A DNA stretch of 64,000 nt from Candidatus Aenigmatarchaeota archaeon (GCA_021163205.1 JAGGXF010000003.1:1200-65199), one strand, 5' to 3'. Positions 8,401-54,080 are shown, counted from the first letter of the stretch. The notes: a model not told the origin generated them from the sequence alone. Translations and numbers: made by a program.

Positions 8401-8466
8401 ATAACCTACCGAAGAACGTACCAGTTGACATAACCAATACTTGGTTGTTGGCCGTAAGAGGACCGC

Positions 8467-8757
8467 TCAAACAGGAAGTCTTGGGTTTTTTCTTGTTCTT
8501 GACTTTCTTGACTTTCCTATTTGCACTATTCCTCTATGACGTGCACAGCTTGGGCAAACATACATCTTTTGGCTGGCCAAACTCAACTGCCTCCGGTCTA
8601 TCTGCTTTCTTATTCCGGGGTCTGTCAACTTAAATCCCTTGAATACGGTAAAACATTTGTACCTAGGAACTTTTTTGCCACAGTAGGCACATGTTACATA
8701 GGACTCACGACCACGTCCCTTGGTATGATGATATGTCCTCTTATATGGCGCTCCCAT
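8467..8757 (-). CDS. rps26e: 30S ribosomal protein eS26
   Basis: 96 aa. KGRGRESYVTCAYCGKKVPRYK...KMYVCPSCARHRGIV matches the eS26 zinc-ribbon pattern (KGRGHV..CxxC..VPKDK...YCVSCAIH). Confidence 0.7.
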   Translation of the reverse strand: MGAPYKRTYHHTKGRGRESYVTCAYCGKKVPRYKCFTVFKGFKLTDPGIRKQIDRRQLSLASQKMYVCPSCARHRGIVQIGKSRKSRTRKNPRLPV

Positions 8758-9076
8758 TCATACCCCTCCGTCTGCTGTTTGTTGCCTTTTGATTTATCTA
8801 TCTTGTCCTAAAATCTTTCCTAAATCTTTTAATGCTTATGACAGCCTTTTAAATAAAGATTATACGTGGATGGTATATAAAATTTTTTAAATGATAATCT
8901 TGCTCAGAAGATAAGCTAATTCAACATAATTGGGATTGCTCCCGGTTTCCTACTAAAATTTCAGAGAGTTAGAATATATCATCGACAAAAGTCGAAATAC
9001 AAATCTTTTTATACCAAAAGTGTATAACTATAAAAAATATATATAAAAATTATTATCATAAAGTAGTAATATTCAG

Positions 9077-11572
9077 GTGTCGGAGATGGAAATCGGGACA
9101 CATAACAAAGCTTATGAAAATGGACCTAATTTAGATAGTGATTCAACTGAGATCATAAATAAGGTACTTTCTACGAATAAAACCAACCCATTTGAATACA
9201 TCTCTCAATTGAAGAACTATTCTGAATTCTTTGAAAATAAAAACGAAAAAGAGCTCCTTAAAGAAAGATTACCAGAAATTGTTGGTTATAATAATGTATA
9301 TGAAGAAATCACAGACAGAACAACAGCCGCGCTCGCTCTTATAAAAGATGCCATCGCCATCAAAGACTATGACGCGCTGAAGAGCTTCTCTAAGGAATTT
9401 GGGATATCATACGAAAAACTTCTCAAACTGGGGGAGAATATGGATGAGATAGAAAAGACCGTCCGAAGATATATTAGAGGCCTAGTAAAAGAGGAGCTAT
9501 CAGAAGCCAGGGAAAAAGTTAGAAACGAATCAGCGTTGTTGAAAAGGCTCGAAGACCCCGCATATGAAGCAGAGCTTATGAAATATCCGGCCTATCAGTG
9601 GGGTAAACTCTTGAAAGAACTTGAAGATGGGGTAAACAAAGGTTACATAAAGACAGATGATTATGGAAGATACATTCTCGAGCATAATGGAGAGCCGTTC
9701 GCATTGGTTGACCCAGAATACGGTATAATAACAGACAAACCAAATAAAATCTTCGGATGGGACCCAACCTACGACAGACTGGGAAACTATGCAGTTCCCA
9801 CAAAACAGTATCTTATTGATGTTGACAGAGAAGTTGAAATACCAGACTACATTATTGAGGACGTCAAGAAAGATTCTGAGCTAAAAGAAGTGAAAACGAT
9901 AAGAGACCTTCTCAAACTAAGGCCAAAAATTGCAAAGAAATTGGGCATATATGGAGAAAAACACATAGACCCGAAAAAACTAGAAAGCTTCATCTATCTT
10001 TCTGGCAAAAAATCAAGTCTTTGGAAAAAGATAGCATCAGTTCTCATTCCTGCAGCGTTTGTTACTGCAGGTCTTGGCTGTTTGAATGGTCCAAAAGAAA
10101 CAAACCCAACCACAACACCGCAGGTAACTACAGCGCCACCGACTGATACAACACCGCCCACATCAGCAGCGCCAACAACACCAGTGAAAACGCCATCGAC
10201 AACTCCACACGTGACAACAACCGTACCGCCAACAACAACCCCAGCCCCGGACTATGTAGGACCTTATCTGGATGTTTTGGGATTGCCAAGAACACCCGAG
10301 ACAGAAAAAGAAATTAATGAATACTTGATTGAAAAGAATATCAGTCCAGAAGATGTTGGAAAGGTTTTGAAGGAGTTATCAAACTATGGTTTTGTGTCTG
10401 ATAAAGAGGTTCATGATTGGATAACAGACGAGAGACTAACCATACCTGAGATAGCAAATATGTACGAACTAATAGAAGACGGTGCATCCACTGATGTTGC
10501 ACTTTTCTTGGGAGAATATAATGATTGGATAAAGAAGCTGCCGAATTATGAAGAGGTTTTGAAAACATTAAATAACCTCGACCCGAGAGATAAGAAATAT
10601 CTGTTTATACATCCCATGACCGAAGGACGTGTAGAGGCGGCTGATGTCTTCTCGGATTGGTGTAATGGTCAGTATGGTCGGTATGTTACTAATAAAGAAA
10701 ATATAACAGAATTTTCTGCACTTTCAATAATTTATTATTTACCAGCCAGCGAAGGACCAAAGAAAAAAATACTTAGCAGAATGGAAGAAAATTTTAAACA
10801 ATATCCGAAAGATAGACTTGACATGGTGGCAAAAGACCGAAGGGCGTTGTTCTTCCTTTTATACAATATGCACCCTACCCAATTAAATTTTGGATTTGAT
10901 ATAGATAATCAAACAGAAAGTATTATATATCCAGAAACTATCGAAAAAGCCCAGGATGCTGGAAAAATTGTAGATTTGAATCCAGATAATTTAACAGACG
11001 ATGAACTTGGTAGAATTTTCTACTATGTTGCCACAACTGTCAATGGGGGCAGAGAGCTGAGGGGGGATGCAAAAAAACTAGACAAGGCTTTTGATTTGTT
11101 TTTGAAAAGAGAAGAAGATTTTGGAGACTGTCAAGTTGACTCTGCTATATTTTCAAATATTATAAACAATAGCATTCCTTTTGATGGAGAGGGTAATTCA
11201 ATCGCCATAACAACTTTAAATTATGAGAAATTGACTGAAAGATTCGCACCAAGAGATCACGCCTCCCCACTAATTTTAAAAGAGGATAAGAATGGGGACA
11301 TAAATTGTTATGTTCCTTGGTATGATAAGCATAAGAAAAAAATTATTCTTGTTCGTGCAAAATTTTCAGGTTCTTATAGATTTATTTCTCCATATCTACT
11401 TTTAATTGAATATGGAACAGATGAGTATGGAAAGCCTATGCCTATAGTGCATCAATATATAAAAGGGTCTCGAACAGAATTAATAAAACTGCCTGAAGTT
11501 GATATAGATTCGGAGGGACTTGTAAACGAAATCTTTAAGTCAGGCGAAAAATTAATCAGAGCCTGGGATTGA
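9077..11572 (+). CDS. large single-pass membrane protein with Pro/Thr-rich linker; function unknown
   Basis: 831 aa. Has an N-terminal ~315-aa coiled-coil-rich domain and a TM helix (IASVLIPAAFVTAGLGCLNG). A ~60-aa low-complexity T/P linker (TTTPQVTTAPPTDTTPPTSAAPTTPVKTPSTTPHVTTTVPPTTTPAP) follows, then a ~430-aa C-terminal domain. The start may be GTG 9077 or ATG 9086. Confidence 0.6.
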   Translation: MSEMEIGTHNKAYENGPNLDSDSTEIINKVLSTNKTNPFEYISQLKNYSEFFENKNEKELLKERLPEIVGYNNVYEEITDRTTAALALIKDAIAIKDYDALKSFSKEFGISYEKLLKLGENMDEIEKTVRRYIRGLVKEELSEAREKVRNESALLKRLEDPAYEAELMKYPAYQWGKLLKELEDGVNKGYIKTDDYGRYILEHNGEPFALVDPEYGIITDKPNKIFGWDPTYDRLGNYAVPTKQYLIDVDREVEIPDYIIEDVKKDSELKEVKTIRDLLKLRPKIAKKLGIYGEKHIDPKKLESFIYLSGKKSSLWKKIASVLIPAAFVTAGLGCLNGPKETNPTTTPQVTTAPPTDTTPPTSAAPTTPVKTPSTTPHVTTTVPPTTTPAPDYVGPYLDVLGLPRTPETEKEINEYLIEKNISPEDVGKVLKELSNYGFVSDKEVHDWITDERLTIPEIANMYELIEDGASTDVALFLGEYNDWIKKLPNYEEVLKTLNNLDPRDKKYLFIHPMTEGRVEAADVFSDWCNGQYGRYVTNKENITEFSALSIIYYLPASEGPKKKILSRMEENFKQYPKDRLDMVAKDRRALFFLLYNMHPTQLNFGFDIDNQTESIIYPETIEKAQDAGKIVDLNPDNLTDDELGRIFYYVATTVNGGRELRGDAKKLDKAFDLFLKREEDFGDCQVDSAIFSNIINNSIPFDGEGNSIAITTLNYEKLTERFAPRDHASPLILKEDKNGDINCYVPWYDKHKKKIILVRAKFSGSYRFISPYLLLIEYGTDEYGKPMPIVHQYIKGSRTELIKLPEVDIDSEGLVNEIFKSGEKLIRAWD

Positions 11573-19632: not shown

Positions 19633-19726
19633 GGGTCTGTAGTCTAGCTAATGCGCAAGCATCTAGAATGGTCTAGGATCGGGCCTTCGGGAGGCTCAGA
19701 CAGGAGTTCAAATCTCCTCAGACCCA
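19633..19726 (+). tRNA. tRNA-Pro(CGG) with putative 20-nt non-canonical intron in the D-loop (19649-19668)
   Basis: Acceptor GGGTCTG/CAGACCC. T-arm AGGAG-TTCAAAT-CTCCT. Anticodon stem-loop GGGCC-TTCGGGA-GGCTC (anticodon CGG, U33, G37). The D-region is 20 nt too long: AGC[TAATGCGCAAGCATCTAGAA]TGGTCTA. Confidence 0.7.
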
Positions 19727-22003: not shown

Positions 22004-22750
22004 TCATCGCCCGAATCTTCTCTTACGGCTTTCGAATTCCTTTAGCGCATCGTTGAAATCCTTCTTCGTGAATTCAGGCCATTTTTTGTCCAAAAAAATT
22101 AACTCTGAGTAGGCTGATTGATATATTAAAAAGTTGGACAAACGCTTTTCCCCACCTGTCCGGATTATCAGATCAGGCGGCGGCCAACCATTTGTGTACA
22201 GATTGTGTCTAAATAACTTTTCATCTATTTCGTGTGGTTTGATTATCCCATTAGCAAGTTTAACAGCCACTTTCCTGGCAGCGTCAACAATCTCCTGTTG
22301 ACCACCATAGGCGACGGCTATCTGTAAGAAATATTTTTTGTTCTTTTTGGTATACTCTTCCACTTTTTTCATCTTTTCTTGCAATGTTTTCGGCAGTAGC
22401 TTTGTCCGACCAATGAACCTTACACAGACGCTGAATTTATTAACTGGGTGGTTTTTATCTTTCAGCATGGCATCGCATTCTTCTCCTATTTGGTTAAGAA
22501 TGAAAACAAGCTCTTTTTTTGGGCGAGATTTTAGATTTTCCAGAGAAAGTGTGTAAGCAGTCATGTATTTAATCCCCGCCTCTATGCCCCAGCTCAGGAC
22601 CTCTCTTGCTTTTAGTCTTCCTTTTTTATGACCAAAACTTGGTCCACGCATAAGATAGCGGGCATAGCGCCGATTGCCATCCATTATAACTCCAACATGA
22701 ACTGGCTTAACCAACATTACACACCCACAATCATTCAAGATATTAATCAT
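22004..22750 (-). CDS. uppS: undecaprenyl/tritrans,polycis-polyprenyl diphosphate synthase (cis-IPPS, UppS)
   Basis: Contains HVGVIMDGNRRYA, the catalytic motif of cis-prenyltransferases. The C-terminus RTGGEKRLSNFLIYQSAYSEL is also conserved. The real start is possibly M at ~22720. Confidence 0.85.
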   Translation of the reverse strand: MINILNDCGCVMLVKPVHVGVIMDGNRRYARYLMRGPSFGHKKGRLKAREVLSWGIEAGIKYMTAYTLSLENLKSRPKKELVFILNQIGEECDAMLKDKNHPVNKFSVCVRFIGRTKLLPKTLQEKMKKVEEYTKKNKKYFLQIAVAYGGQQEIVDAARKVAVKLANGIIKPHEIDEKLFRHNLYTNGWPPPDLIIRTGGEKRLSNFLIYQSAYSELIFLDKKWPEFTKKDFNDALKEFESRKRRFGR

Positions 22751-22814
22751 GCTATATTTAAAACTATTAATTTAACCAAATTTAAAAATTTAAAAATGTA
22801 TCTTAGATATATGG

Positions 22815-23648
22815 GTGATTGAAAAAATGATAAATGGTATTACATTCATTATAGCTTTTATTGGTTCCCTACTTGCAGCGATAGAAGACCTTAAAACAAC
22901 GGAAATACCAGACGAAATCCCATTTATGATGAGCACTTTAGGCGTATTTTACTGGTATATCTACTCACTAAACATAGGTGGATTTCAGCCGTTGTTGCTC
23001 TCTCTTGCTACTGGGCTGGTTTTATTGGCATTTGGTTGGTTACTCTACTTGGGTGGCCAATGGGGAGGAGGAGACGCAAAAGTTTTAGCAGGCATAGGCT
23101 TCCTAATGCCTTTTTATTCATGGTTCACAACGGGAATGGTGTCTCTATATGTAACATTTGTAATTAATCTATTTTTAGTTGGTTCCGCTTATATGATATT
23201 TTACACGCTGGTCATAGGTTTCATCGACAAAAAGGTCTTTCCAGCGTTTGTAAAGTCCGTGAGGGGAGATATTAAAATAGTCTTTGGTATACCAATCATA
23301 TCTCTCATGGTTGTTGTATTAATACTCAACACCGTAGGATTCATAGAGCCAATCATACTCATGTCAACATTTCTTATATCTCTTTTCATAACACTTTTTT
23401 GGAAATATGCCAAAACCATTGAAGATGTGGCTTTCAAACGACGAATACCTGTTTCAAAACTCAGGGAGGGTGATGTGCTGTTTGAATCAAAGAAGTGGAT
23501 AGGGCTCACAAAAGAAGAGGTTCGAAAAATAAAGAAAACGAGAAAAAGTGTCGTTATCAAGGAGGGTGTTCGCTTTGCGCCGGCGTTCCCGCTGGCTTTA
23601 ATTATTACATATTATCTTGGGAATATATTATTATTCTTGGTGATATGA
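22815..23648 (+). CDS. A24-family prepilin/preflagellin peptidase-like membrane protein (second copy)
   Basis: 277 aa, polytopic. Contains GGQWGGGDAKVLAGIGF (GGGDxK motif). The C-terminal soluble segment is similar to that of the gene at 1647-2771. Confidence 0.6.
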   Translation: MIEKMINGITFIIAFIGSLLAAIEDLKTTEIPDEIPFMMSTLGVFYWYIYSLNIGGFQPLLLSLATGLVLLAFGWLLYLGGQWGGGDAKVLAGIGFLMPFYSWFTTGMVSLYVTFVINLFLVGSAYMIFYTLVIGFIDKKVFPAFVKSVRGDIKIVFGIPIISLMVVVLILNTVGFIEPIILMSTFLISLFITLFWKYAKTIEDVAFKRRIPVSKLREGDVLFESKKWIGLTKEEVRKIKKTRKSVVIKEGVRFAPAFPLALIITYYLGNILLFLVI

Positions 23649-24670
23649 TGACAATGCTACCATTCATAATAGATATTGAGAGAAATATGATCAAAAAAAC
23701 GAATGATATAATCAGACCTGCAAATCTCGGAAAGCGTTGTGTTATAATAACAGGCACAAATACAAAAAAAATCGCAGGACAAAAACTATACAACGAGTTA
23801 AAAAAAGAATATGAAACAGATATTGTAATAAGTGTCTCGAATGAAAAAAAAGAGCTCGGGTCCTTTGCCAAAAACTTGGAACCGTACGACTTTCTTCTTG
23901 GAGTTGGTGGCGGTAAAATAATGGATATAACAAAATATTCTGCTTATTTGACAGGAAAGCCGTGGATTTCTTTTCCGACTGTCCTTAGCCACGATGGCAT
24001 CGTATCCTCGAGAGCCTCTCTCAGTGATAATGGAACCAAAACATCGATAGAAGCAAAGGGACCTATAGCAATATTGGCTGACTATGATATTCTAAAAGAA
24101 GCTCCAATGCGCTGGATGATATCGGGAGTTGCTGACCTAATTTCCAATTACTCTGCTGTTGAGGACTGGCGTCTGGCGAGCAACGCTGGAAAGGAAAAAT
24201 ACGACGAGCTGTGTGCAGGACTTTCCCTCACTGCAGCGAACGCATGCGTCGCAGAGATGAAAAACATAATAAGAAAAAATTATGAAGGCGTGAAAACACT
24301 TCTCGAAGCACTAGTCCTTTCTGGATTTGCAATGAATCTATTTGGCTCTTCTCGCCCATCGTCTGGATCAGAGCATAACTTTGCGCACGCTTTGGAGATG
24401 ATGAACGCACCCGGCCTGCATGGAGAGCAATGCGGCCTCGGAACAATAATTTCGTCCTACCTGCAAAAAAAGAACTGGGTAAAAATAAGGGAATATCTCA
24501 AAAACTTTGGCGCGCCAACAAAAGCCTCAGAAATAGGCATAACGGACGAACAAGCCATTTCAGCCCTTGTTCAAGCACCGAAAATACGTTCAAGATATAC
24601 CATATTAAATCGATACGATATAGACAGAGAACTGGCTAGAGAGATTCTCGAAAAAGTCGGTGTTATATAA
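23645..24670 (+). CDS. egsA: glycerol-1-phosphate dehydrogenase [NAD(P)+] (EgsA)
   Basis: Start MMTMLPF overlaps the upstream stop (ATGA). Motifs GVGGGKIMDITKYSAY and VLSHDGIVSSRAS are typical of G1PDH in the DHQS-like superfamily. Confidence 0.8.
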   Translation: MMTMLPFIIDIERNMIKKTNDIIRPANLGKRCVIITGTNTKKIAGQKLYNELKKEYETDIVISVSNEKKELGSFAKNLEPYDFLLGVGGGKIMDITKYSAYLTGKPWISFPTVLSHDGIVSSRASLSDNGTKTSIEAKGPIAILADYDILKEAPMRWMISGVADLISNYSAVEDWRLASNAGKEKYDELCAGLSLTAANACVAEMKNIIRKNYEGVKTLLEALVLSGFAMNLFGSSRPSSGSEHNFAHALEMMNAPGLHGEQCGLGTIISSYLQKKNWVKIREYLKNFGAPTKASEIGITDEQAISALVQAPKIRSRYTILNRYDIDRELAREILEKVGVI

Positions 24671-24752
24671 AAATAAAAACTATACAGAAAAAAGTTACCA
24701 AATTCTAGCAGAAATGAGAGACCACCGAGATTTACTTCATAGCATCGATTGA

Positions 24753-25502
24753 TTAGTGTCTGAAATCCTTCACAGCTCTTATAATCGACTTCATCGTATT
24801 CTCCATGTCATCTGACTCGCATGCTGTGCCTGTCACAATTATATCTGCTCCGGCTTCTAAGCTCGCTGTAACCGCGTCTGCTGTTTTCATGCCACCACCA
24901 ACTATCAGTGGTATATCTATGGCACTCTTTACCGTTTTTATTATCTCGGGTGATATTGGCTCTTCTACCCCAGATCCCGCCTCCAGATAAACTAAAGACA
25001 TACCAAGATATTGTGCGGCCAACGCATAAGCAGCGACGAGTTTTGGCTTGCTCCTTGGCAACGGCTTTGCATCGCCAACAAAGGAGACGGTTCCACCGGG
25101 TTCTATTACCAGATAGCCCATTGATATGGGCTCAATACCAAAACGCTTAACAAGGGGCGCGCCCAGAACTTGCGCTCCAACTATCCAGTATGGGTTTCTA
25201 GAGTTTAACAAAGACATGAAAAATATTGCATCAGCCTGTCGGCTTATCCCGCTGGTATTGCCAGGAAAAAGTATGACCGGCAATGAACAATTTTCTTTAA
25301 CCGTACCAACAACATCATCTAGAATGCTCGAAACTATGTTAGTCGAACCGCCAATCATTATCGCATCTGTGCCAAGCTTTTCTAGTATGCGAATCTTTGA
25401 CGCTACGTCATTTATGTCTTGTTTAAGTGGGTCTGGGTCTATTAAAGAAAAGTGCAGCCGACCTTTTTCAAGTTTTTTTCGTATATAATCGAAAACCTTC
25501 AT
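24753..25502 (-). CDS. geranylgeranylglyceryl phosphate synthase (GGGPS)
   Basis: 249 aa. MKVFDYIRKKLEKGRLHFSLIDPDP and AIMIGGS, with GGG near the C-terminus. PcrB/GGGPS family. Confidence 0.85.
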   Translation of the reverse strand: MKVFDYIRKKLEKGRLHFSLIDPDPLKQDINDVASKIRILEKLGTDAIMIGGSTNIVSSILDDVVGTVKENCSLPVILFPGNTSGISRQADAIFFMSLLNSRNPYWIVGAQVLGAPLVKRFGIEPISMGYLVIEPGGTVSFVGDAKPLPRSKPKLVAAYALAAQYLGMSLVYLEAGSGVEEPISPEIIKTVKSAIDIPLIVGGGMKTADAVTASLEAGADIIVTGTACESDDMENTMKSIIRAVKDFRH

Positions 25503-25543: not shown

Positions 25544-27601
25544 TTATTCTATCACAAATGCACCAGATCCTGAGGCTACTCGCATTTCTATGTCAGATAA
25601 CCTCTGTTCAAGTCGCCTTATCCTATCCTCTATGTTATGCGTTGATACTTTGGTCGGGGCTGGTGATGACACACTTAGCGGTATTGCTTTCATTCTCATG
25701 AGCTCATCTTTTGTGACAAGCTCAGGCAATTTCCTATCCAGCGTTTCGGCGAACTTCTCAAGGTTTTTGGTAACTAGCGATACAATCCGATCATCTAAAT
25801 CTTTCTTAATTTTTTCTTCCAAGTCTGTCTCTGGCGACTTTTCAGACAGCCGGGCCTTTATCTCTTCTATATCGCGCATCGCAGAATCAAACCTTCTAAT
25901 CTTGTTCTCCACGCCAGAACTCATAGTTTCTATCTTTCTGACTATATCGCTTGCCTGGTCAATCTTCGATTGTATTTTTTCAGCATCAATTGTCATCTGG
26001 TTCAGGGAATCTATTTTTGTATACACCGCATCCTTCAAAGCATTCATATTGTCTATATAAGCCATGAACTTTTCCTCATTTACTTTGGACCTGTTTTCCA
26101 TCTCCTGTTGTAACTCAGAAATTCTTCTCAATCCTTCATCTAGAGCCTTCGACTTTTCTTCCACCATAGAACGGAATGCCTCTATTGATGCAACCTTCTT
26201 GTCAAAATCGTTTTTAATCTGCCTAATACGAGACTCTATAGCACTCAGCTGGTCAACCTTGCTTCTGACGTGGTCAGCAAGTCGCTCAGCTGTTTGCAGC
26301 CTTTTATCCATCGCTTCAAGCCTCTCATTCATAGCATCGTTTATGGCTTTCATGTTGTCAATATTATTTTTCATTTTATCTTCGAATATCTTTCTCGTAG
26401 CATCGATATCAGCACTTATCTTTTCTACCTCAGCCAGTTTTTCATCTGTTTTCGAGAATTTTTCTTCTATGTTTCTATCGAGAGAATCAAGCCTTTGAAT
26501 ATCGTTTCTAACTTTTTCCTCGATTGTGTTCATTTTAGTAATAGCGGCTTCCACTTTTTGTAGGACTGCGTCAGCAGTTTCAGCCTTATCTTTTATCTTT
26601 CCAAGTGCCAATATAAGCTGGTTTATCATTTCCCTGCTTCGATTAAGCTCTTCCTGATCCTTTTTCATTTCAGCCCGAGCAGAGCGTATCTTTTCAAGAA
26701 ACATATCCATACCTTTTTGGGTAAGCATTTTTCCCGAGTTCTCCACCAACTCTTCGATCTTATCAATCTTGGAGCGAATCTCAGCCAGATTTTGCTCCAT
26801 ATTTTTCTCTATTTTTTCGACGTGATTTGCTTGAAGAAGTATTTCTTTTTTGAACTCTGTTTGTAACTCATCCTTCAGATTATCAATATCTTTTTTCAGT
26901 TCTTCTATATGGCTCCCAAAAGAATTTGCTGATCGACATGTACTTTTCAGATTCTCGATGTCTGAAGAGAGACTCTTGATTTGTTCATCTATATCCTTAG
27001 TCTTCTCGTTGTAACTTTGCTTAATGGCATCGATGTCTTTTCTTAGACCTTCAATAATGCCAGATTCTACGCCAGACGGCTCTTCTATAATAGCGTGCTT
27101 AAGAGCTTCTATTTTTGATTCTAGCGCCTTTATACGGTCTTCATCTATACCAGACCCGCGAAGATGTTTTATTCTTTCTTCTATTTTCTGCATAATGCCT
27201 TCGCCCGGAACACCTGCTCCTATTTTCTCTAGTCTCTCTTCTAAAGAGGCGACCTTTTTTTGTAGGTCCTTCATTGTTTTTTCCTGTGTTATATCGAGCT
27301 TCTCTCCTCGCTCCAAAAGAAATTCTTTTAATTTGACCATTTCTGCCTCAAGCAACATCTGTAAGTCTTCTATCTCCAATATTCTCTCGTTCAGCTCCTC
27401 AATACCAGAAGGTGAACTTGGTCCTGGGCCAGAAACAATCTCTACGTTCTCAGAATTTGGCTCTTCTGTTTCTGATTCAGTTTCTTCTTTACTCATATTT
27501 CCCCTATCTTTACCCACTTCACTAGGCGTGTCTGTTTCTGAAATACTAGAATGGGACTCGCCAACATTTTTTACGTCTTTTTCTTCTTGCATAGATACCA
27601 A
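25544..27601 (-). CDS. 685-aa coiled-coil protein (acidic N-terminus, ~550 aa continuous heptad-repeat region)
   Basis: Extremely E/K/L/I-rich with periodic hydrophobics throughout. No Walker motifs. Antisense ORFs on the + strand (25590-26498, 27024-27611) are low-complexity artifacts. Confidence 0.6.
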   Translation of the reverse strand: MVSMQEEKDVKNVGESHSSISETDTPSEVGKDRGNMSKEETESETEEPNSENVEIVSGPGPSSPSGIEELNERILEIEDLQMLLEAEMVKLKEFLLERGEKLDITQEKTMKDLQKKVASLEERLEKIGAGVPGEGIMQKIEERIKHLRGSGIDEDRIKALESKIEALKHAIIEEPSGVESGIIEGLRKDIDAIKQSYNEKTKDIDEQIKSLSSDIENLKSTCRSANSFGSHIEELKKDIDNLKDELQTEFKKEILLQANHVEKIEKNMEQNLAEIRSKIDKIEELVENSGKMLTQKGMDMFLEKIRSARAEMKKDQEELNRSREMINQLILALGKIKDKAETADAVLQKVEAAITKMNTIEEKVRNDIQRLDSLDRNIEEKFSKTDEKLAEVEKISADIDATRKIFEDKMKNNIDNMKAINDAMNERLEAMDKRLQTAERLADHVRSKVDQLSAIESRIRQIKNDFDKKVASIEAFRSMVEEKSKALDEGLRRISELQQEMENRSKVNEEKFMAYIDNMNALKDAVYTKIDSLNQMTIDAEKIQSKIDQASDIVRKIETMSSGVENKIRRFDSAMRDIEEIKARLSEKSPETDLEEKIKKDLDDRIVSLVTKNLEKFAETLDRKLPELVTKDELMRMKAIPLSVSSPAPTKVSTHNIEDRIRRLEQRLSDIEMRVASGSGAFVIE

Positions 27602-27607
27602 CTTTGG

Positions 27608-28252
27608 TTAAACGTGATAATTATTTTTTGTTCTTTTTGGAATATATAAGTTTTCTTTTTTGGTTTTCATTCTTTTGGCCTTGAATTTCTCTCTTTCCTT
27701 GAAATAGTGTCCAAACCATTTTGAGCCTTTATACCAGTAAATCCAACACACGAGAAGAACTGCTATAAGCCCCCAACTCCACAGCGTTTTGTGTATGATT
27801 TCGAATTTTTCTACCCCGAAGCTCGAAACAAAGAAAAAGACAAACCATACGCGCATTATGTTAGCCAGATATAAAAGAGGGATGAAAATCCAGGCGTTGA
27901 GCTTTTTTTTCCAGTCTGTTGGGGTTGCTACAACAAGCGCGATGAAAACCAGGATAGACTTCCACCCGGTACAATCCCAATCGATTGTTCCGCCAAACAT
28001 CCCTGTTTTTATAGGAACCGTTATCATAAGCCCACTAAGCCCAGCGCGGATGCCCGTAATATTCAGAAACATTGTGACAACTCTGGCTGTGAACAACTGA
28101 AGAAAGTAGATGTTATTCCGGGTGAGAAAATATAGAGGTATGATAAAAATATTAAATACGACAGAAAATTTGAGTATCTTGATGAGTTTAGTATTAAGCC
28201 TTGTTTTTTTGATTCTAAGCTTTACTCTCGGCTTAGATAATGTGCTAGTCAT
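27608..28252 (-). CDS. exosortase/archaeosortase-family transmembrane protein (small variant)
   Basis: 214 aa, polytopic. Motif TIDWDCTGWKSILVF resembles the exosortase active-site C(S/T)G...S block. Conserved R and N lie in later TM helices (ANIMRVWF). Confidence 0.5.
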   Translation of the reverse strand: MTSTLSKPRVKLRIKKTRLNTKLIKILKFSVVFNIFIIPLYFLTRNNIYFLQLFTARVVTMFLNITGIRAGLSGLMITVPIKTGMFGGTIDWDCTGWKSILVFIALVVATPTDWKKKLNAWIFIPLLYLANIMRVWFVFFFVSSFGVEKFEIIHKTLWSWGLIAVLLVCWIYWYKGSKWFGHYFKEREKFKAKRMKTKKENLYIPKRTKNNYHV

Positions 28253-29357
28253 TCATACGACCTCTATAATTTTTTATCCAGCTTTGAAACCATGTCTTAA
28301 GATGTTCCTGCATGAGCCTTTCTATATCACACCGGCACACGAAAAACCCACCACCAATTTTTTTTATTCTCCCCCTAAATCCTGTTACATTCCTGATGAC
28401 AGGTATCGTCGTTTTTAAGCTAACCGAATCTGGTGATATAATTAATCTTGGTTCATGCTCCTCTAAATAGCTTACATTACCACGCAACTTTTCGACGAAA
28501 AGCACCTTTCCTCTAATTTTTCCTGCTTTCATAAGTTCTGCCTTGCTCAAGTCTTTCAGAATGATGATATTTTCGTATGCTTGGAGCAACTCTTTTCGTT
28601 CCTCCAAATGCTTTGCTAGTTCTTCTTTGTAGAGTTTTTTCAGATTATCAAGTTGAAAAACCAATTTTTCCAACTTTTTCGGAGTAATTCTTCTTATTTT
28701 GGTTTTCCTTATATGTTTTATCTTTTCTTTCAGCTCCTCATTCTCCCTCTCTAGCTTCTTTATGGTATGCTTTAGCGCTCTTTCGGACATCTCTAGATGT
28801 CTCAGTTTTTGTTCAAGAATGCGTGAGCTTCTAGCTACAACAACGGTCTGGTGCACAATCCTTTTTTGTTCAGGTTTCTTGTTCATTAAAACATTAAGCG
28901 CATCACTCACCTTTAACTCATTCTTGAAGACAAGCGAAATGATATCTTCCTTGAGAGAACCCAGTTTCTCTTTCTCTAGAATCTTATCTATTCTTTTCAC
29001 TTTTTCCCTTACCTGATTAAATGCGAACAAAGCTGACGCTAACGCATCCTCTTCATGGTCGTTTTTGATATATTTATTATACCCCCTAATCAGATCGATT
29101 TTTTCTTGGCTTGGTATATCCTTGTTTGGTGCAATTATTTTCGAACCGAATGTTCTGGCTATCTGTCTGACCAGGTTTGGGACTTTTTTCTTGTCTGTTG
29201 TAATAACAACGGGGTCTCCAAGTTTCGCTATTTCATATATAATGTCATCTCTAGAGAATCCCTTTCTGCTAACAGCGCCTACAAAGTTCGAATTGAAATC
29301 GATTGCAGAAACGGCTGTCGTAAGACCGGGGTCTATCCCGACAATGAGCTTTTTCAA
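28245..29357 (-). CDS. RNase H-fold (YqgF/RuvC-like) nuclease-domain protein with C-terminal coiled coil (DUF460-like)
   Basis: N-terminus MKKLIVGIDPGLTTAVSAIDFNSNFVG matches the YqgF-type start. The middle region has long K/E-rich coiled coils. Confidence 0.5.
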   Translation of the reverse strand: MKKLIVGIDPGLTTAVSAIDFNSNFVGAVSRKGFSRDDIIYEIAKLGDPVVITTDKKKVPNLVRQIARTFGSKIIAPNKDIPSQEKIDLIRGYNKYIKNDHEEDALASALFAFNQVREKVKRIDKILEKEKLGSLKEDIISLVFKNELKVSDALNVLMNKKPEQKRIVHQTVVVARSSRILEQKLRHLEMSERALKHTIKKLERENEELKEKIKHIRKTKIRRITPKKLEKLVFQLDNLKKLYKEELAKHLEERKELLQAYENIIILKDLSKAELMKAGKIRGKVLFVEKLRGNVSYLEEHEPRLIISPDSVSLKTTIPVIRNVTGFRGRIKKIGGGFFVCRCDIERLMQEHLKTWFQSWIKNYRGRMND

Positions 29358-29598: not shown

Positions 29599-30774
29599 CT
29601 AGTTTCGCAAGGTCTTGAAAACGATTTCTGCGCTTTCTGCGCTTTTCCACAGCCTTAAAAGCTCATTCAGTTTCGATATTCGCATACCTGCTATTCCGAA
29701 TTTAGCAAGAGGAACAAGTTGTGCAAGCTTTGAAACCACACCACAACACGTTTCTCCGCTCCTGTGTGAGACGATAGGAGTTATGTCGTTTGCATTGGCT
29801 ATTTCAATGAGCTTCATACAATCGGTTATTGTTCCTATCTGGTTCGGCTTTACAATGACGCCACTCATAGCTTTTCGTTTGACCGACTCTTCCAGACGTT
29901 TTGGACTCGAAGCAATTATATCGTCTCCAGTTATTATGACATTTTTCAGTTTTTTTGTCAGCTCTGAAAACCCATCAAAATCTGCCTGTTCAAATGGGTC
30001 TTCTATGAAGTAAAGATTATACTTTTTTGCTAACTCAACAACATAATCTACCTGCTCACCCGGACTCAACTTTTTGTCGTAGTAGACATACTTTCCAATC
30101 TTTTCATCCCAGAATGATGTCGCGGCCATATCGACACCAAGCAATGCTCTGTCGCCAACAATATCAGATATTATGTCTAGCGCTTTCTCATCTTCGATAT
30201 CAGCTGTCCAGCCAGACTCATAATCAAGACCGACATGGCCAATCTTCAAAAGTCTTTCTCTCACCTCTTTCCATATCTCAAAGTTCGATTTAAGCACATC
30301 CCACATCGTCTCTATCTCCCCACACACTTTTGTCGTGACAAGAAATTCTTGTATCGAGGTCTTCCTGGACCCGGCGTGTTTTCCTCCCCCGACTACCTTT
30401 CCGAGTATGTTTGGAAAGGTATTTCTAGTTGGAGTGGATGAAAAAAATGCAAGAGATATGGCTGTTGTGACTTGTGATCCAAGCTCATTTATGTGTTTTT
30501 TTAACAAAGCATCTAAACGCTCCTGAGTAAAGTCTCCGAGAAATTCGTTTTTCAAGGAAGAAAAGGCATTTATAGCTGTATCGGGAGATATTGCTCCCTG
30601 CGCAAACTTGCTGACACTTGTTCCACCAGCAGCACTTGCTCTATAGACAGCTTGATCGCCGAAAATGGTTGCTTCTATGGTTTCGTGTCCAACAGAATCA
30701 AATATTTTTATGAGTTTAATATCTTTGATTAACATAGAATAACTATACATATCTAGCCATATAAAACTAACCAT
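29599..30774 (-). CDS. eno: enolase (divergent; SHRSGETCC in place of canonical SHRSGETED)
   Basis: 391 aa. N-terminus IKDIKLIKIFDSVGHETIEA. Also DMAATSFW, VKPNQIGTITD, SHRSGETCCG and a C-terminal KLNELLRL. Confidence 0.75.
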   Translation of the reverse strand: MVSFIWLDMYSYSMLIKDIKLIKIFDSVGHETIEATIFGDQAVYRASAAGGTSVSKFAQGAISPDTAINAFSSLKNEFLGDFTQERLDALLKKHINELGSQVTTAISLAFFSSTPTRNTFPNILGKVVGGGKHAGSRKTSIQEFLVTTKVCGEIETMWDVLKSNFEIWKEVRERLLKIGHVGLDYESGWTADIEDEKALDIISDIVGDRALLGVDMAATSFWDEKIGKYVYYDKKLSPGEQVDYVVELAKKYNLYFIEDPFEQADFDGFSELTKKLKNVIITGDDIIASSPKRLEESVKRKAMSGVIVKPNQIGTITDCMKLIEIANANDITPIVSHRSGETCCGVVSKLAQLVPLAKFGIAGMRISKLNELLRLWKSAESAEIVFKTLRN

Positions 30775-52224: not shown

Positions 52225-53187
52225 TTACTGTTTCTTCTTTCGCTTTTTGCCGCCCTCCTCTTCTTTTGCCTTCTTTTCGACTTCTTCTTCGATGTTTAGG
52301 GCTTCTGCTATCTCCTTGTATCTATTTCTTATAGTAACCTCTGTTACACCAACAACATCTGCTACCTCTCTCTGTGTTCTTCGTTCCCCTTCCAATACAG
52401 ACGCTATATATATCGCTGCTGCTGCACAGCCGCAAGGCCCCTTTCCAGATATCACATCCTTTTTTCTCGCCTTTTTTAGTATGTTAATAGCCTTAACCTG
52501 AACCCTGTCGCTGAGATTAAGCATGGATGCGAACCTTGGTATATATGAAGCTGCCTTCGCGGGAAGAATTCTCATTCCCATTTTTCTTGATATGTATCTA
52601 TACGTGCGACCTAGTTCTCTTTTTTCTATTCCAGATGCCTGAGATATTTCTGTTAATGTTCTTGGAGTTCCGTATTCCCGACATAGCGAATAAACAAGAG
52701 CTGCAATTATGGATTCAATTGAACGACCACGGACAAGACCCTTTTCTAGTGCCTTTTCGTACAGTTTTGCAACCTCTTCGTGCAGAGTGGCGGGTAGCCC
52801 CAAATACGAAACCAATCTCTGAAGCTCGCCCAACGCAAATGAAAGGTTTCTGTCTTTCGATGTTAGTAGACGCTTCTGCCATTTCCTGATTCTGAAGAAC
52901 TGAGAACGTTTTTTGGCAGGCACCTTAAAAAGCTCTGTCACACCTTTGCCTATTTCAGTCGTGAGGCCCTTGTCATGCCTTCTGTGTGTTAGAGGGGCAC
53001 CTGTCCTCGCCCTTTTTTCTTTCTGGTCGTCTGTGAATGCTCGCCAATCCTGAGAAATATCAATCATAGAATCCTCAATCACCCTACCACATTTAGCACA
53101 TATCAGCTCTGCCCGTTCGGGGTCTTTATAAAATTCAGTAGAACCGCAGTCCGGACATTTAAAAATCTTCTTTTTTATCATACTCAC
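52225..53187 (-). CDS. tfb: transcription initiation factor TFB (TFIIB)
   Basis: N-terminal Zn ribbon CPDCGSTEFYKDPERAELICAKCG. Two cyclin-fold repeats. Has a K/E-rich C-terminal tail. Confidence 0.9.
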   Translation of the reverse strand: MSMIKKKIFKCPDCGSTEFYKDPERAELICAKCGRVIEDSMIDISQDWRAFTDDQKEKRARTGAPLTHRRHDKGLTTEIGKGVTELFKVPAKKRSQFFRIRKWQKRLLTSKDRNLSFALGELQRLVSYLGLPATLHEEVAKLYEKALEKGLVRGRSIESIIAALVYSLCREYGTPRTLTEISQASGIEKRELGRTYRYISRKMGMRILPAKAASYIPRFASMLNLSDRVQVKAINILKKARKKDVISGKGPCGCAAAAIYIASVLEGERRTQREVADVVGVTEVTIRNRYKEIAEALNIEEEVEKKAKEEEGGKKRKKKQ

Positions 53188-53687: not shown

Positions 53688-54080
53688 ATGGAGACGACGG
53701 TTGAAGAAATCAAAAAATGTCGCGAAGGTAAATTTATTCTTATTGATAACGCGCCTTGCAAAGTAACAAGCCTCAAAATATCCAAGCCGGGAAAACACGG
53801 CGAAGCAAAGGCACGACTAGAAGCGGTTGGTATATTTGATGGTCAGAAACGCGTTATTGTGAAACCGGCTGGCCATAAAGTTAGAATACCAATAGTCATA
53901 AAAAAGAATGCTCAAGTTATATCAATTTCGGGTGATAATGCTCAGTTAATGGATTTGGAAGATTATTCTATGTTTGAAACCCGCATACCAGACGACCTCA
54001 AGGGAAAAGTCGTGGAAGGTGGCGAGGTCGTGATATGGAAGTTCGGCGACTATGTCATGATCAAGGGCGTCAAAGCTTAA
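53688..54080 (+). CDS. eif5a: translation initiation factor 5A (aIF5A)
   Basis: Hypusination loop SKPGKHGEAKARLEAVGIFDGQKR. Followed by an OB domain. Confidence 0.85.
   Translation: METTVEEIKKCREGKFILIDNAPCKVTSLKISKPGKHGEAKARLEAVGIFDGQKRVIVKPAGHKVRIPIVIKKNAQVISISGDNAQLMDLEDYSMFETRIPDDLKGKVVEGGEVVIWKFGDYVMIKGVKA

Follow-up and report, generated by a model that had tools for sequence, protein, structure and literature searches.

What does a small archaeosortase do when its gene is set between the genes of a nuclease-fold protein and of a long coiled-coil protein that ends in a conserved pentapeptide? This question is raised by a 64-kb stretch of DNA (hereafter, the window) from Candidatus Aenigmatarchaeota archaeon (GCA_021163205.1 JAGGXF010000003.1:1200-65199), one of the DPANN archaea, a group in which cell biology has hardly been studied. 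What is known of archaeosortases comes from work on a single enzyme, ArtA, and from the computational pairing of enzymes with tripartite signals, and several small subtypes, ArtE included, have no known target. The original prediction, made from the window alone, had placed three minus-strand open reading frames (ORFs) at positions 28245-29357 (a DUF460/COG2433 protein of 370 amino acids, aa), 27608-28252 (a membrane protein of 214 aa) and 25544-27601 (a coiled-coil protein, hereafter the rod), and the three were found at exactly these positions; all of them have homologues and are therefore real genes. The data are best explained by taking the trio as an operon specific to the lineage of Aenigmatarchaeota-type DPANN archaea, with a small archaeosortase at its centre. 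As for the way in which its products might act together, we tentatively favour a model in which an outward-facing processing sortase is served by a co-expressed cytoplasmic rod that docks by its tail.

A total of 55 related loci were fetched which, together with the window, fell into 42 non-redundant groups at 85% sortase identity. Those from the genome collection are assigned to Candidatus Aenigmatarchaeota (DPANN), and in the closest related locus the sortase is 68% identical and the neighbouring genes are 83-86% identical to those of the window. Counts of rod genes out of 32 take in the groups with at least 700 nucleotides (nt) of downstream DNA, and counts of DUF460 genes the 36 groups with upstream DNA. 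Local hidden Markov models (HMMs) of the DUF460 N-domain, the rod head and the rod tail were run across all loci.

Assignment of the 214-aa protein to the archaeosortases

The central gene of the trio encodes a 214-aa protein in which a DWDCTGWKS block had been likened to the catalytic Cys block of exosortases and archaeosortases. This reading was borne out by the sortase HMMs, since TIGR04178 matched at 55.3 bits (cutoff 23) and PF09721 at 52.3 bits (cutoff 25.7), and the DWDCTGWKS block lies within the TIGR04178 match, which delimits the signature region of the superfamily (residues 89-173, positions 27734-27988, minus strand). On the other hand, the suggested TIGR04125 (ArtA) model reached 26.5 bits against a cutoff of 75, and the scores for the other subtypes were likewise below their cutoffs: XrtH 46/86, heimdallarchaeosortase 39.5/130, XrtA 37.8/208, ArtB 33.8/150, XrtG 31.3/102.75, ArtE 31.1/95, ArtF 26.5/150 and pacearchaeosortase 9.8/80. 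These profiles place the 214-aa protein firmly in the exosortase/archaeosortase superfamily and outside every named subtype.

An exhaustive profile search with the 214-aa sortase recovered 993 relatives at E<=0.001, including 220 at E<=1e-10; each relative stands for a cluster formed at 50% identity, and most have 150-210 aa. Residue conservation and charge statistics were computed on 128 diverse relatives, all of which match TIGR04178 (81 of them also touch the pacearchaeosortase model). The conservation of Cys, Arg and Asn by which the prediction was to be judged held across this set and extended to a His: Arg134 (27851-27853) is present in 128/128, Asn131 (27860-27862) and His154 (27791-27793) in 126 each, and position 94 (27971-27973) is Cys in 107 and Ser in the remaining 21. 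The near-invariant Cys, Arg and His have been described as the putative catalytic triad of the family (Haft preprint). By alignment, this putative triad and the Asn are intact in the 214-aa protein.

In four related loci (L007 4524-5099, L009 179-826, L012 4640-5233 and L013 2477-3067) the block reads WDSSGWKS, the Cys nucleophile having been exchanged for Ser; these Ser-type sortases keep a rod partner, which ends in RVP[VI]VVE.

Conservation of the gene order

A lack of conserved gene order would have spoken against the original prediction, and we found the neighbours of the sortase gene to be kept down to about 25-30% sortase identity. A rod gene lies beside the sortase gene in 27 of the 42 groups (25 of the 32 with enough downstream DNA), always downstream and in the same orientation, the median gap being 63 nt. 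The DUF460 gene is located directly upstream of the sortase gene in 17/36 groups, with a median spacing of -7 nt, that is, an overlap, and DUF460 C-terminal fragments overlap the sortase start in three more contigs (L054, L056, L057). The full trio was observed in 11 groups. Other genes are also frequent in the region: aIF5A upstream of the sortase gene (18/42 groups, median distance 461 nt), the gene for GGGP synthase (GGGPS) downstream (13/42, about 2.7 kb), TFB upstream on the opposite strand (10 groups, about 2.9 kb) and the gene for glycerol-1-phosphate dehydrogenase (G1PDH) downstream on the opposite strand (8 groups, about 4.2 kb).

The sortase-rod pair persists despite changes in its flanks, which hold an M50 protease, aIF5A or enolase gene on the upstream side and a GGGPS, HAD hydrolase or UbiA gene on the downstream side. 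Rod and DUF460 genes thus stand out from the background by their immediate adjacency, common strand and persistence through flank changes.

In a number of loci (for instance L004, L005, L008, L010, L014, L020, L024, L028 and L046) aIF5A is found just upstream of the DUF460 or the sortase gene, with TFB farther up. In the window, aIF5A (53688-54080) and TFB (52225-53187) are about 25 kb away from the trio, and enolase and Cbf5 genes stand upstream of it instead. This displacement of aIF5A and TFB indicates a rearrangement breakpoint beside the trio, the trio itself having been left intact.

Viewed from the DUF460 side, the pairing with the sortase is specific to the Aenigmatarchaeota-type clade. 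A pairing valid for all archaea was rejected, as a Woesearchaeota locus (L058) and two loci with long-form DUF460 genes (L059, L060) have no adjacent sortase gene.

The DUF460 protein

The RuvC/YqgF-type RNase H fold that had been ascribed to the product of the first gene was corroborated by a PF04312 match of 112 bits against a cutoff of 28. The 370-aa protein (28245-29357, minus strand) consists of a RuvC-like domain (aa 1-160, 28878-29357), a coiled-coil hairpin (aa 162-298, 28464-28874) and a small C-terminal domain. In its AlphaFold2 (AF2) model the N-domain has predicted local distance difference test (pLDDT) values above 95, the hairpin is formed by the helices H162-218 and H226-298, and the C-terminal part is poorly predicted. 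D9, D55, H101, E102 and D104 are invariant or nearly so in the DUF460 alignments (A6, A8), and an RNase H-like fold with conserved acidic active-site residues is present. DUF460/COG2433 has been placed among the RNase H-like proteins as a group confined to archaea, close to RuvC, YqgF and Tex, in which the catalytic aspartates are preserved (PMC3985635); in the literature searched, we found no biochemical data for any DUF460 protein. The PADLOC defence-system models matched neither the DUF460 protein nor the sortase, and an anti-phage defence identity was rejected. The matches that PADLOC gave for the rod, to the SMC-like rods of JetC and LmuB, are compositional.

Short DUF460 forms of about 160 aa, lacking the hairpin, occur in L005, L006, L008, L011 and L014. 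The long form has a C-terminal motif, W-[IL]-K-x-Y-[KR]-E-[KR], encoded at the sortase start or overlapping it, both in the window (28248-28290) and at the corresponding ends in L027, L028, L034, L036, L040, L051, L052 and L057; the short forms are devoid of both motif and hairpin.

Predicted topology of the sortase

The AF2 model of the sortase (pLDDT 89.6) comprises a helix at residues 21-43, a second one at 49-65, three strands at 71-89, a helix at 92-109 beginning at Cys94, a helix at 114-145 with Asn131 and Arg134, and a last helix at 150-201 beginning near His154. Positive charge is unevenly distributed along these elements: in the 128 sequences the mean number of Lys plus Arg residues is 4.45 in the N-tail, 3.12 in the loop 110-117 and 3.52 in the C-tail, in comparison with 0.13 in the loop 44-48 and 0.16 in the loop 146-153. 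By the positive-inside rule, these means place both termini and the loop 110-117 in the cytoplasm. The topology derived from secondary structure and charge predicts four membrane crossings, with an outer helix (helix 2) and the three-stranded sheet outside. Cys94 and His154 would each lie where a helix reaches the outer side, and Arg134 would be in the outer half of H4. Enzymes of the family cut at a motif that abuts the outer end of a transmembrane (TM) helix (Haft preprint), and the predicted geometry of the DPANN sortase appears to fit this mode of action.

The coiled-coil rod and its terminal pentapeptide

The rod gene (25544-27601, minus strand) encodes 685 aa if read from a TTG codon, or 682 aa from an ATG at 27592. 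Its product had been taken for a coiled-coil protein with an acidic head, and both features were substantiated: hydrophobic autocorrelation is 0.29 at lag 7 and 0.21 at lag 14, as corresponds to a true heptad coiled coil, and the protein has an acidic N-terminal extension, the net charge being -13 in the first 70 aa and -31 overall. Pro is absent between residues 176 and 589, and charged residues make up 39% of the protein. No Pfam or NCBIfam family scored above cutoff. Candidate matches to SMC, Rad50, the crescentin rod, EzrA and ATG17-like proteins were rejected as compositional and far below cutoff; in the case of SMC and Rad50 (TIGR02168 51.7 vs 567, Rad50 39 vs 700) they cover coiled-coil segments only, and the rod has no ATPase head. 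A match of the tail to DUF7310 was regarded as coiled-coil noise because it is below cutoff and its positions are inconsistent in seven relatives.

Rods from different loci are about 21% identical and range from 224 to 947 aa, and they have in common two conserved regions. The first one is a head motif, ER-h-x-E-h-EDL-h-LLLQVE..K, which in the window comprises aa 67-94 (IEELNERILEIEDLQMLLEAEMVKLKEF, 27320-27403); the head HMM matched the downstream gene in 25 groups. The second is a tail domain, NLE-x-FA-x-x-h-D-+-x-x-P ... R-h-x-x-LE, represented in the window by the last 95 aa (NLEKFAETLDRKLP ... RIRRLEQRLSDIE ..., 25547-25831) and matched by the tail HMM in 22 groups. A search with the rod tail returned three fragments; contig L061 ends upstream of the rod tail.

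All 22 complete tails from non-redundant groups finish in a pentapeptide with the consensus P-[IVFA]-[VI]-[VLI]-E-COOH. Glu occupies position -1 in 22/22; position -2 is Val, Leu or Ile and position -3 Val or Ile in every tail, and over positions -4 to -2 all 22 have nothing but Ile, Val, Leu, Phe or Ala. Position -5 is Pro in 19/22, His in one and Ala in the clade of the window (GAFVIE), whose rod ends in AFVIE-COOH (25547-25561). This ending was found in 29 of the 402 ORFs in the loci that are complete and reach 150 aa or more, all 29 being rod partners, and in 0 of the 373 unrelated ORFs; within the window, the rod is the only one of 140 ORFs to carry it. The original prediction that the rod lacks a sorting signal is right for signals of the tripartite type, there being no C-terminal TM helix, and it had overlooked the family-specific pentapeptide. 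By their conserved head and tail and by the pentapeptide, the rods form an unnamed protein family of their own.

Throughout the approximately 25 members of the family there is no hydrophobic N-terminus, no TM segment and no 19-residue hydrophobic window; the N-termini are charged and helical (for example, MDDFHQLSERL... and MVSMQEEKDV...). For such a protein we infer a cytoskeletal or scaffold role, as had been proposed.

In ten loci (L005, L010, L023, L025, L031, L037, L041, L044, L047 and L049) the rod is split into two consecutive genes downstream of the sortase gene, the first one encoding a head protein of 160-220 aa that ends in LLSxVQxILxR and the second a tail protein of 460-780 aa with the pentapeptide. 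The split is probably real and not a frameshift artefact, because it recurs in several clades. Another locus, L011, has no rod: the protein encoded after the sortase gene (8443-9138) starts with MFYDLHVHTN, which by eye we take to be PHP/RNase P p30-like, and ends in GVSIVE, a loosely pentapeptide-like sequence whose resemblance is probably a coincidence.

Possible roles of the sortase and its partners

According to the model that we favour, the sortase would most likely process exported proteins at their C-termini, the genes of these proteins lying elsewhere in the genome, as suggested by the prediction of both its termini inside and its catalytic residues at the outer leaflet. The rod, lacking a signal peptide and a membrane helix, would most likely be a cytoplasmic partner and not a substrate. 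Its terminal peptide, in which the invariant Glu with its free carboxylate follows three aliphatic residues, might serve as a docking peptide, with the basic cytoplasmic face of the sortase as the prime docking candidate, and docking would tether or position the sortase at a defined membrane site. The DUF460 protein, cytoplasmic and provided in its long form with a coiled-coil hairpin of its own, could join the same membrane-proximal assembly. There is a precedent for such spatial organisation, as ArtA of Haloferax is confined to midcell by unknown means (PMC7157517).

Several observations weigh against this model. No conventional tripartite substrate was found in the window or in about 330 kb of related loci; the original prediction had likewise seen no obvious substrate with a tripartite C-terminal signal in the 64-kb window. 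The conserved C-terminal motif encoded beside the sortase gene is target-like by Haft's rule for dedicated systems. Sortases without a long basic tail (L005, L010) still have a rod, which implies that the C-tail is not the docking site, and there was no correlation between the length of the sortase C-tail and the presence of a rod. In seven of the groups with enough DNA, no rod gene adjoins the sortase gene. Lastly, aIF5A is as common a neighbour as DUF460, so that the conservation of gene order is partly background synteny; housekeeping genes being frequent neighbours too, gene order must be slow to change in these genomes, and co-linearity alone is weak evidence.

This last point is the starting point of the explanation that ranks next, which we regard as somewhat unlikely: that there is no direct functional link, the genes being neighbours through slow gene-order change. 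The sortase would then act on unrelated exported proteins, the pentapeptide would serve for self-assembly of the rod or for a partner encoded elsewhere, and the DUF460 protein would be an independent nucleic-acid enzyme. Such an explanation agrees with the conserved presence of the unconnected genes for aIF5A, TFB, GGGPS and G1PDH, with the occurrence of DUF460 without the sortase in Woesearchaeota and other archaea, and with several loci (L018-L020) in which the sortase has neither rod nor DUF460 gene adjacent to it. However, it leaves aside that no other neighbour is as frequent or as close as the rod gene, which is always on the same strand, and that DUF460 overlaps the sortase gene, whereas aIF5A and GGGPS are hundreds to thousands of nt away. 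Furthermore, the pairs persist to about 25-30% sortase identity and across rearranged flanks, and in the window it is the aIF5A linkage that was broken while the trio remained intact.

A second alternative, which we consider unlikely, is that the rod is the single target of the adjacent sortase, with the pentapeptide P-x-V-V-E-COOH as a helix-less recognition and cleavage motif. The last residues would be removed and the new C-terminus perhaps joined to a membrane lipid, anchoring the cytoskeleton-like rod covalently to the membrane by a logic similar to that of CAAX boxes and Rce1. A sorting signal is recognised by its place at the C-terminus, by an invariant motif with a TM segment and a basic cluster, and by a signal peptide on the protein that bears it, and in dedicated one-to-one systems enzyme and target are encoded by consecutive genes (Haft). 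The rod tail has the location, the motif and the adjacency, with consecutive genes in 25/32 groups; the motif is family-specific, lies at the extreme C-terminus and contains a near-invariant Pro, as do the PEP, PGF and PEF motifs. In addition, the catalytic residues are kept in all partnered sortases, the exchange of Cys for Ser in L007, L009, L012 and L013 preserving a nucleophile; no other candidate substrate is encoded nearby; and the block includes ether-lipid genes, comparable to the artA-pssA-pssD synteny (PMC7157517). On the contrary, there is no TM segment after the motif, no terminal basic cluster (Glu being the last residue in 22/22) and no signal peptide. Moreover, the active site is predicted outside and the rod inside, which makes a classical enzyme-substrate relation doubtful; the window clade has Ala instead of Pro at position -5, and a rod gene is missing beside several sortases of the clade. 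The stricter form of this proposal, in which the P-x-[VI]-[VLI]-E-COOH tail would be a new helix-less sortase signal and the rod, trimmed and covalently attached to lipid, a prokaryotic counterpart of CAAX-type proteins, is less likely still.

A membrane-associated nucleic-acid machine, in which the DUF460 nuclease, the membrane protein and an SMC-like rod would take part in DNA uptake, transfer or segregation, is very improbable: it would agree with the complete RuvC-like catalytic set and fold of DUF460, with the weak rod matches to SMC and Rad50 coiled-coil segments and with the loss of natural transformation upon artE deletion in M. maripaludis, the sole genetics on an uncharacterised mini-archaeosortase (PMC10133366), but those rod matches are limited to the coiled coil and far below cutoff, the sortase is not ArtE by model (31 vs 95), the loss of transformation may reflect an indirect effect of ArtE on the maturation of surface proteins or pili, and neither DUF460 nor the sortase is matched by PADLOC. 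We therefore rank scaffold and docking first, followed by pure synteny, an unconventional dedicated substrate and, well behind, a DNA-related membrane machine.

Whichever holds, a mini-sortase is tightly and repeatedly paired here with one specific protein that bears an invariant C-terminal peptide and no other part of a sorting signal. If the rod is a scaffold, as we favour, it would be the first candidate for positioning an archaeosortase in the membrane, a question posed since the midcell observation on ArtA. Were it the target, the rules for sortase signals would widen, a route for lipid-anchoring intracellular scaffolds would be at hand, and it would represent the first archaeosortase target other than an exported surface protein. 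Besides, DUF460, an archaea-wide RuvC-like protein, gains its first consistent genomic partner.

Relation to known systems

With ArtA/PGF-CTERM of Haloferax volcanii the DPANN sortase has in common the TIGR04178 and PF09721 signatures, the putative Cys/Arg/His triad and, probably, a membrane-embedded site at the outer face. It differs from ArtA in being far smaller (214 aa, four predicted crossings) and aligns to positions 78-199 of the 271-position ArtA model; there is no PGF-CTERM or other tripartite substrate near it, and DUF460 and coiled-coil partners are not known for ArtA. ArtE of Methanococcus maripaludis (MMJJ_17200), XrtH, ArtB, ArtF, pacearchaeosortase and heimdallarchaeosortase are likewise small (about 150-200 aa). 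The best partial matches among the subtypes were to XrtH and heimdallarchaeosortase, and all subtypes remained far below cutoff. ArtE has no assigned sorting signal, and its transformation phenotype is not transferable to the DPANN sortase. The dedicated single-target exosortase systems (Haft) resemble the sortase-rod pair in the adjacent gene with a family-specific motif at the extreme C-terminus, although their targets carry a full tripartite signal and a signal peptide, unlike the rod.

The DUF460 protein is 18-19% identical to RuvC resolvase and YqgF/RuvX. In contrast to them it is archaea-specific, has an additional coiled-coil hairpin and C-terminal domain, is without demonstrated activity and, in the sortase clade, is translationally coupled to a membrane protein. 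The rod is comparable to crescentin-type coiled-coil-rich proteins (CCRPs) and SMC-like rods in being a heptad-periodic rod with distinct head and tail, and weak crescentin, EzrA and SMC matches were obtained; it is set apart from them by the compositional nature of these sub-cutoff matches, by the lack of an ATPase head and by a head, tail and pentapeptide of its own. Rce1 is an intramembrane protease that acts on a short, helix-less, aliphatic C-terminal motif; it takes substrates that already carry a prenyl group on Cys, and access to its site is from the cytoplasm. The fold of Rce1 is unrelated to that of the sortase; the likeness to CAAX-box processing is an analogy only.

A full-text literature search produced no paper in which archaeosortases are connected with DPANN, with DUF460 or with a coiled-coil partner. 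As the enzyme belongs to a known superfamily, the finding is not categorically new. The new parts are the unnamed sortase subfamily, its clade-specific coupling to a RuvC-like protein and the partner with a helix-less C-terminal peptide, in a pairing previously undescribed.

Gene junctions and surrounding region

The 8-nt overlap of the DUF460 stop with the sortase start that had been reported was observed. The 6-nt gap between sortase and rod genes was found to hold up to the first possible start codon, TTG; the likely start, on the contrary, is an ATG located 15 nt past the sortase stop (TAA CCAAAG TTG GTA TCT ATG). This ATG is probably the true start, in agreement with the 682-aa gene calls on near-identical contigs.

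A poly-A run in the sortase gene (27656-27661, minus strand) has six residues in the window and seven in the near-identical L001, as revealed by DNA alignment of both, and the difference shifts the frame over the last 16 or so codons of the basic tail. The tail of the window ends in ...KKENLYIPKRTKNNYHV, and that of relatives in ...KKRKLIYSK[KR][NT]KK; the conserved reading is also found in P0001 and P0002. Since it stops earlier, leaving 19-28 nt before the rod gene in relatives, the 6-nt gap is partly accidental. The A6/A7 difference could be a sequencing or assembly indel or a genuine homopolymer variation, and in either case the catalytic core is unaffected.

A block of ether-lipid and envelope genes adjoins the trio (22004-25502). 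It comprises the genes for a cis-prenyltransferase (22004-22750), an A24 prepilin-type peptidase (22815-23648), G1PDH (about 23633-24670) and GGGPS (24753-25502), and in relatives also those for a UbiA prenyltransferase and a HAD hydrolase. With its listed start at 23495, the G1PDH ORF runs into the A24 gene, and this start has probably been set too far upstream. On the other side, the enolase ORF (29599-30774, 391 aa) has a Pfam match to the C-terminal TIM-barrel alone (residues 124-376) and none to Enolase_N; L001 and L002 call enolase as 318 aa, and the N-terminus in the window is either divergent or the result of a miscalled start.

A bacterial promoter and terminator scan gave 12 sites against 10.6 expected, that is, no enrichment, and such a scan is not applicable to archaea. 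Rfam reported a tRNA at 19633-19726 (44.4 bits), which extends over 94 nt as compared with the 71 positions of the model, and ARAGORN found no tRNA in the window; this is probably an intron-containing archaeal tRNA.

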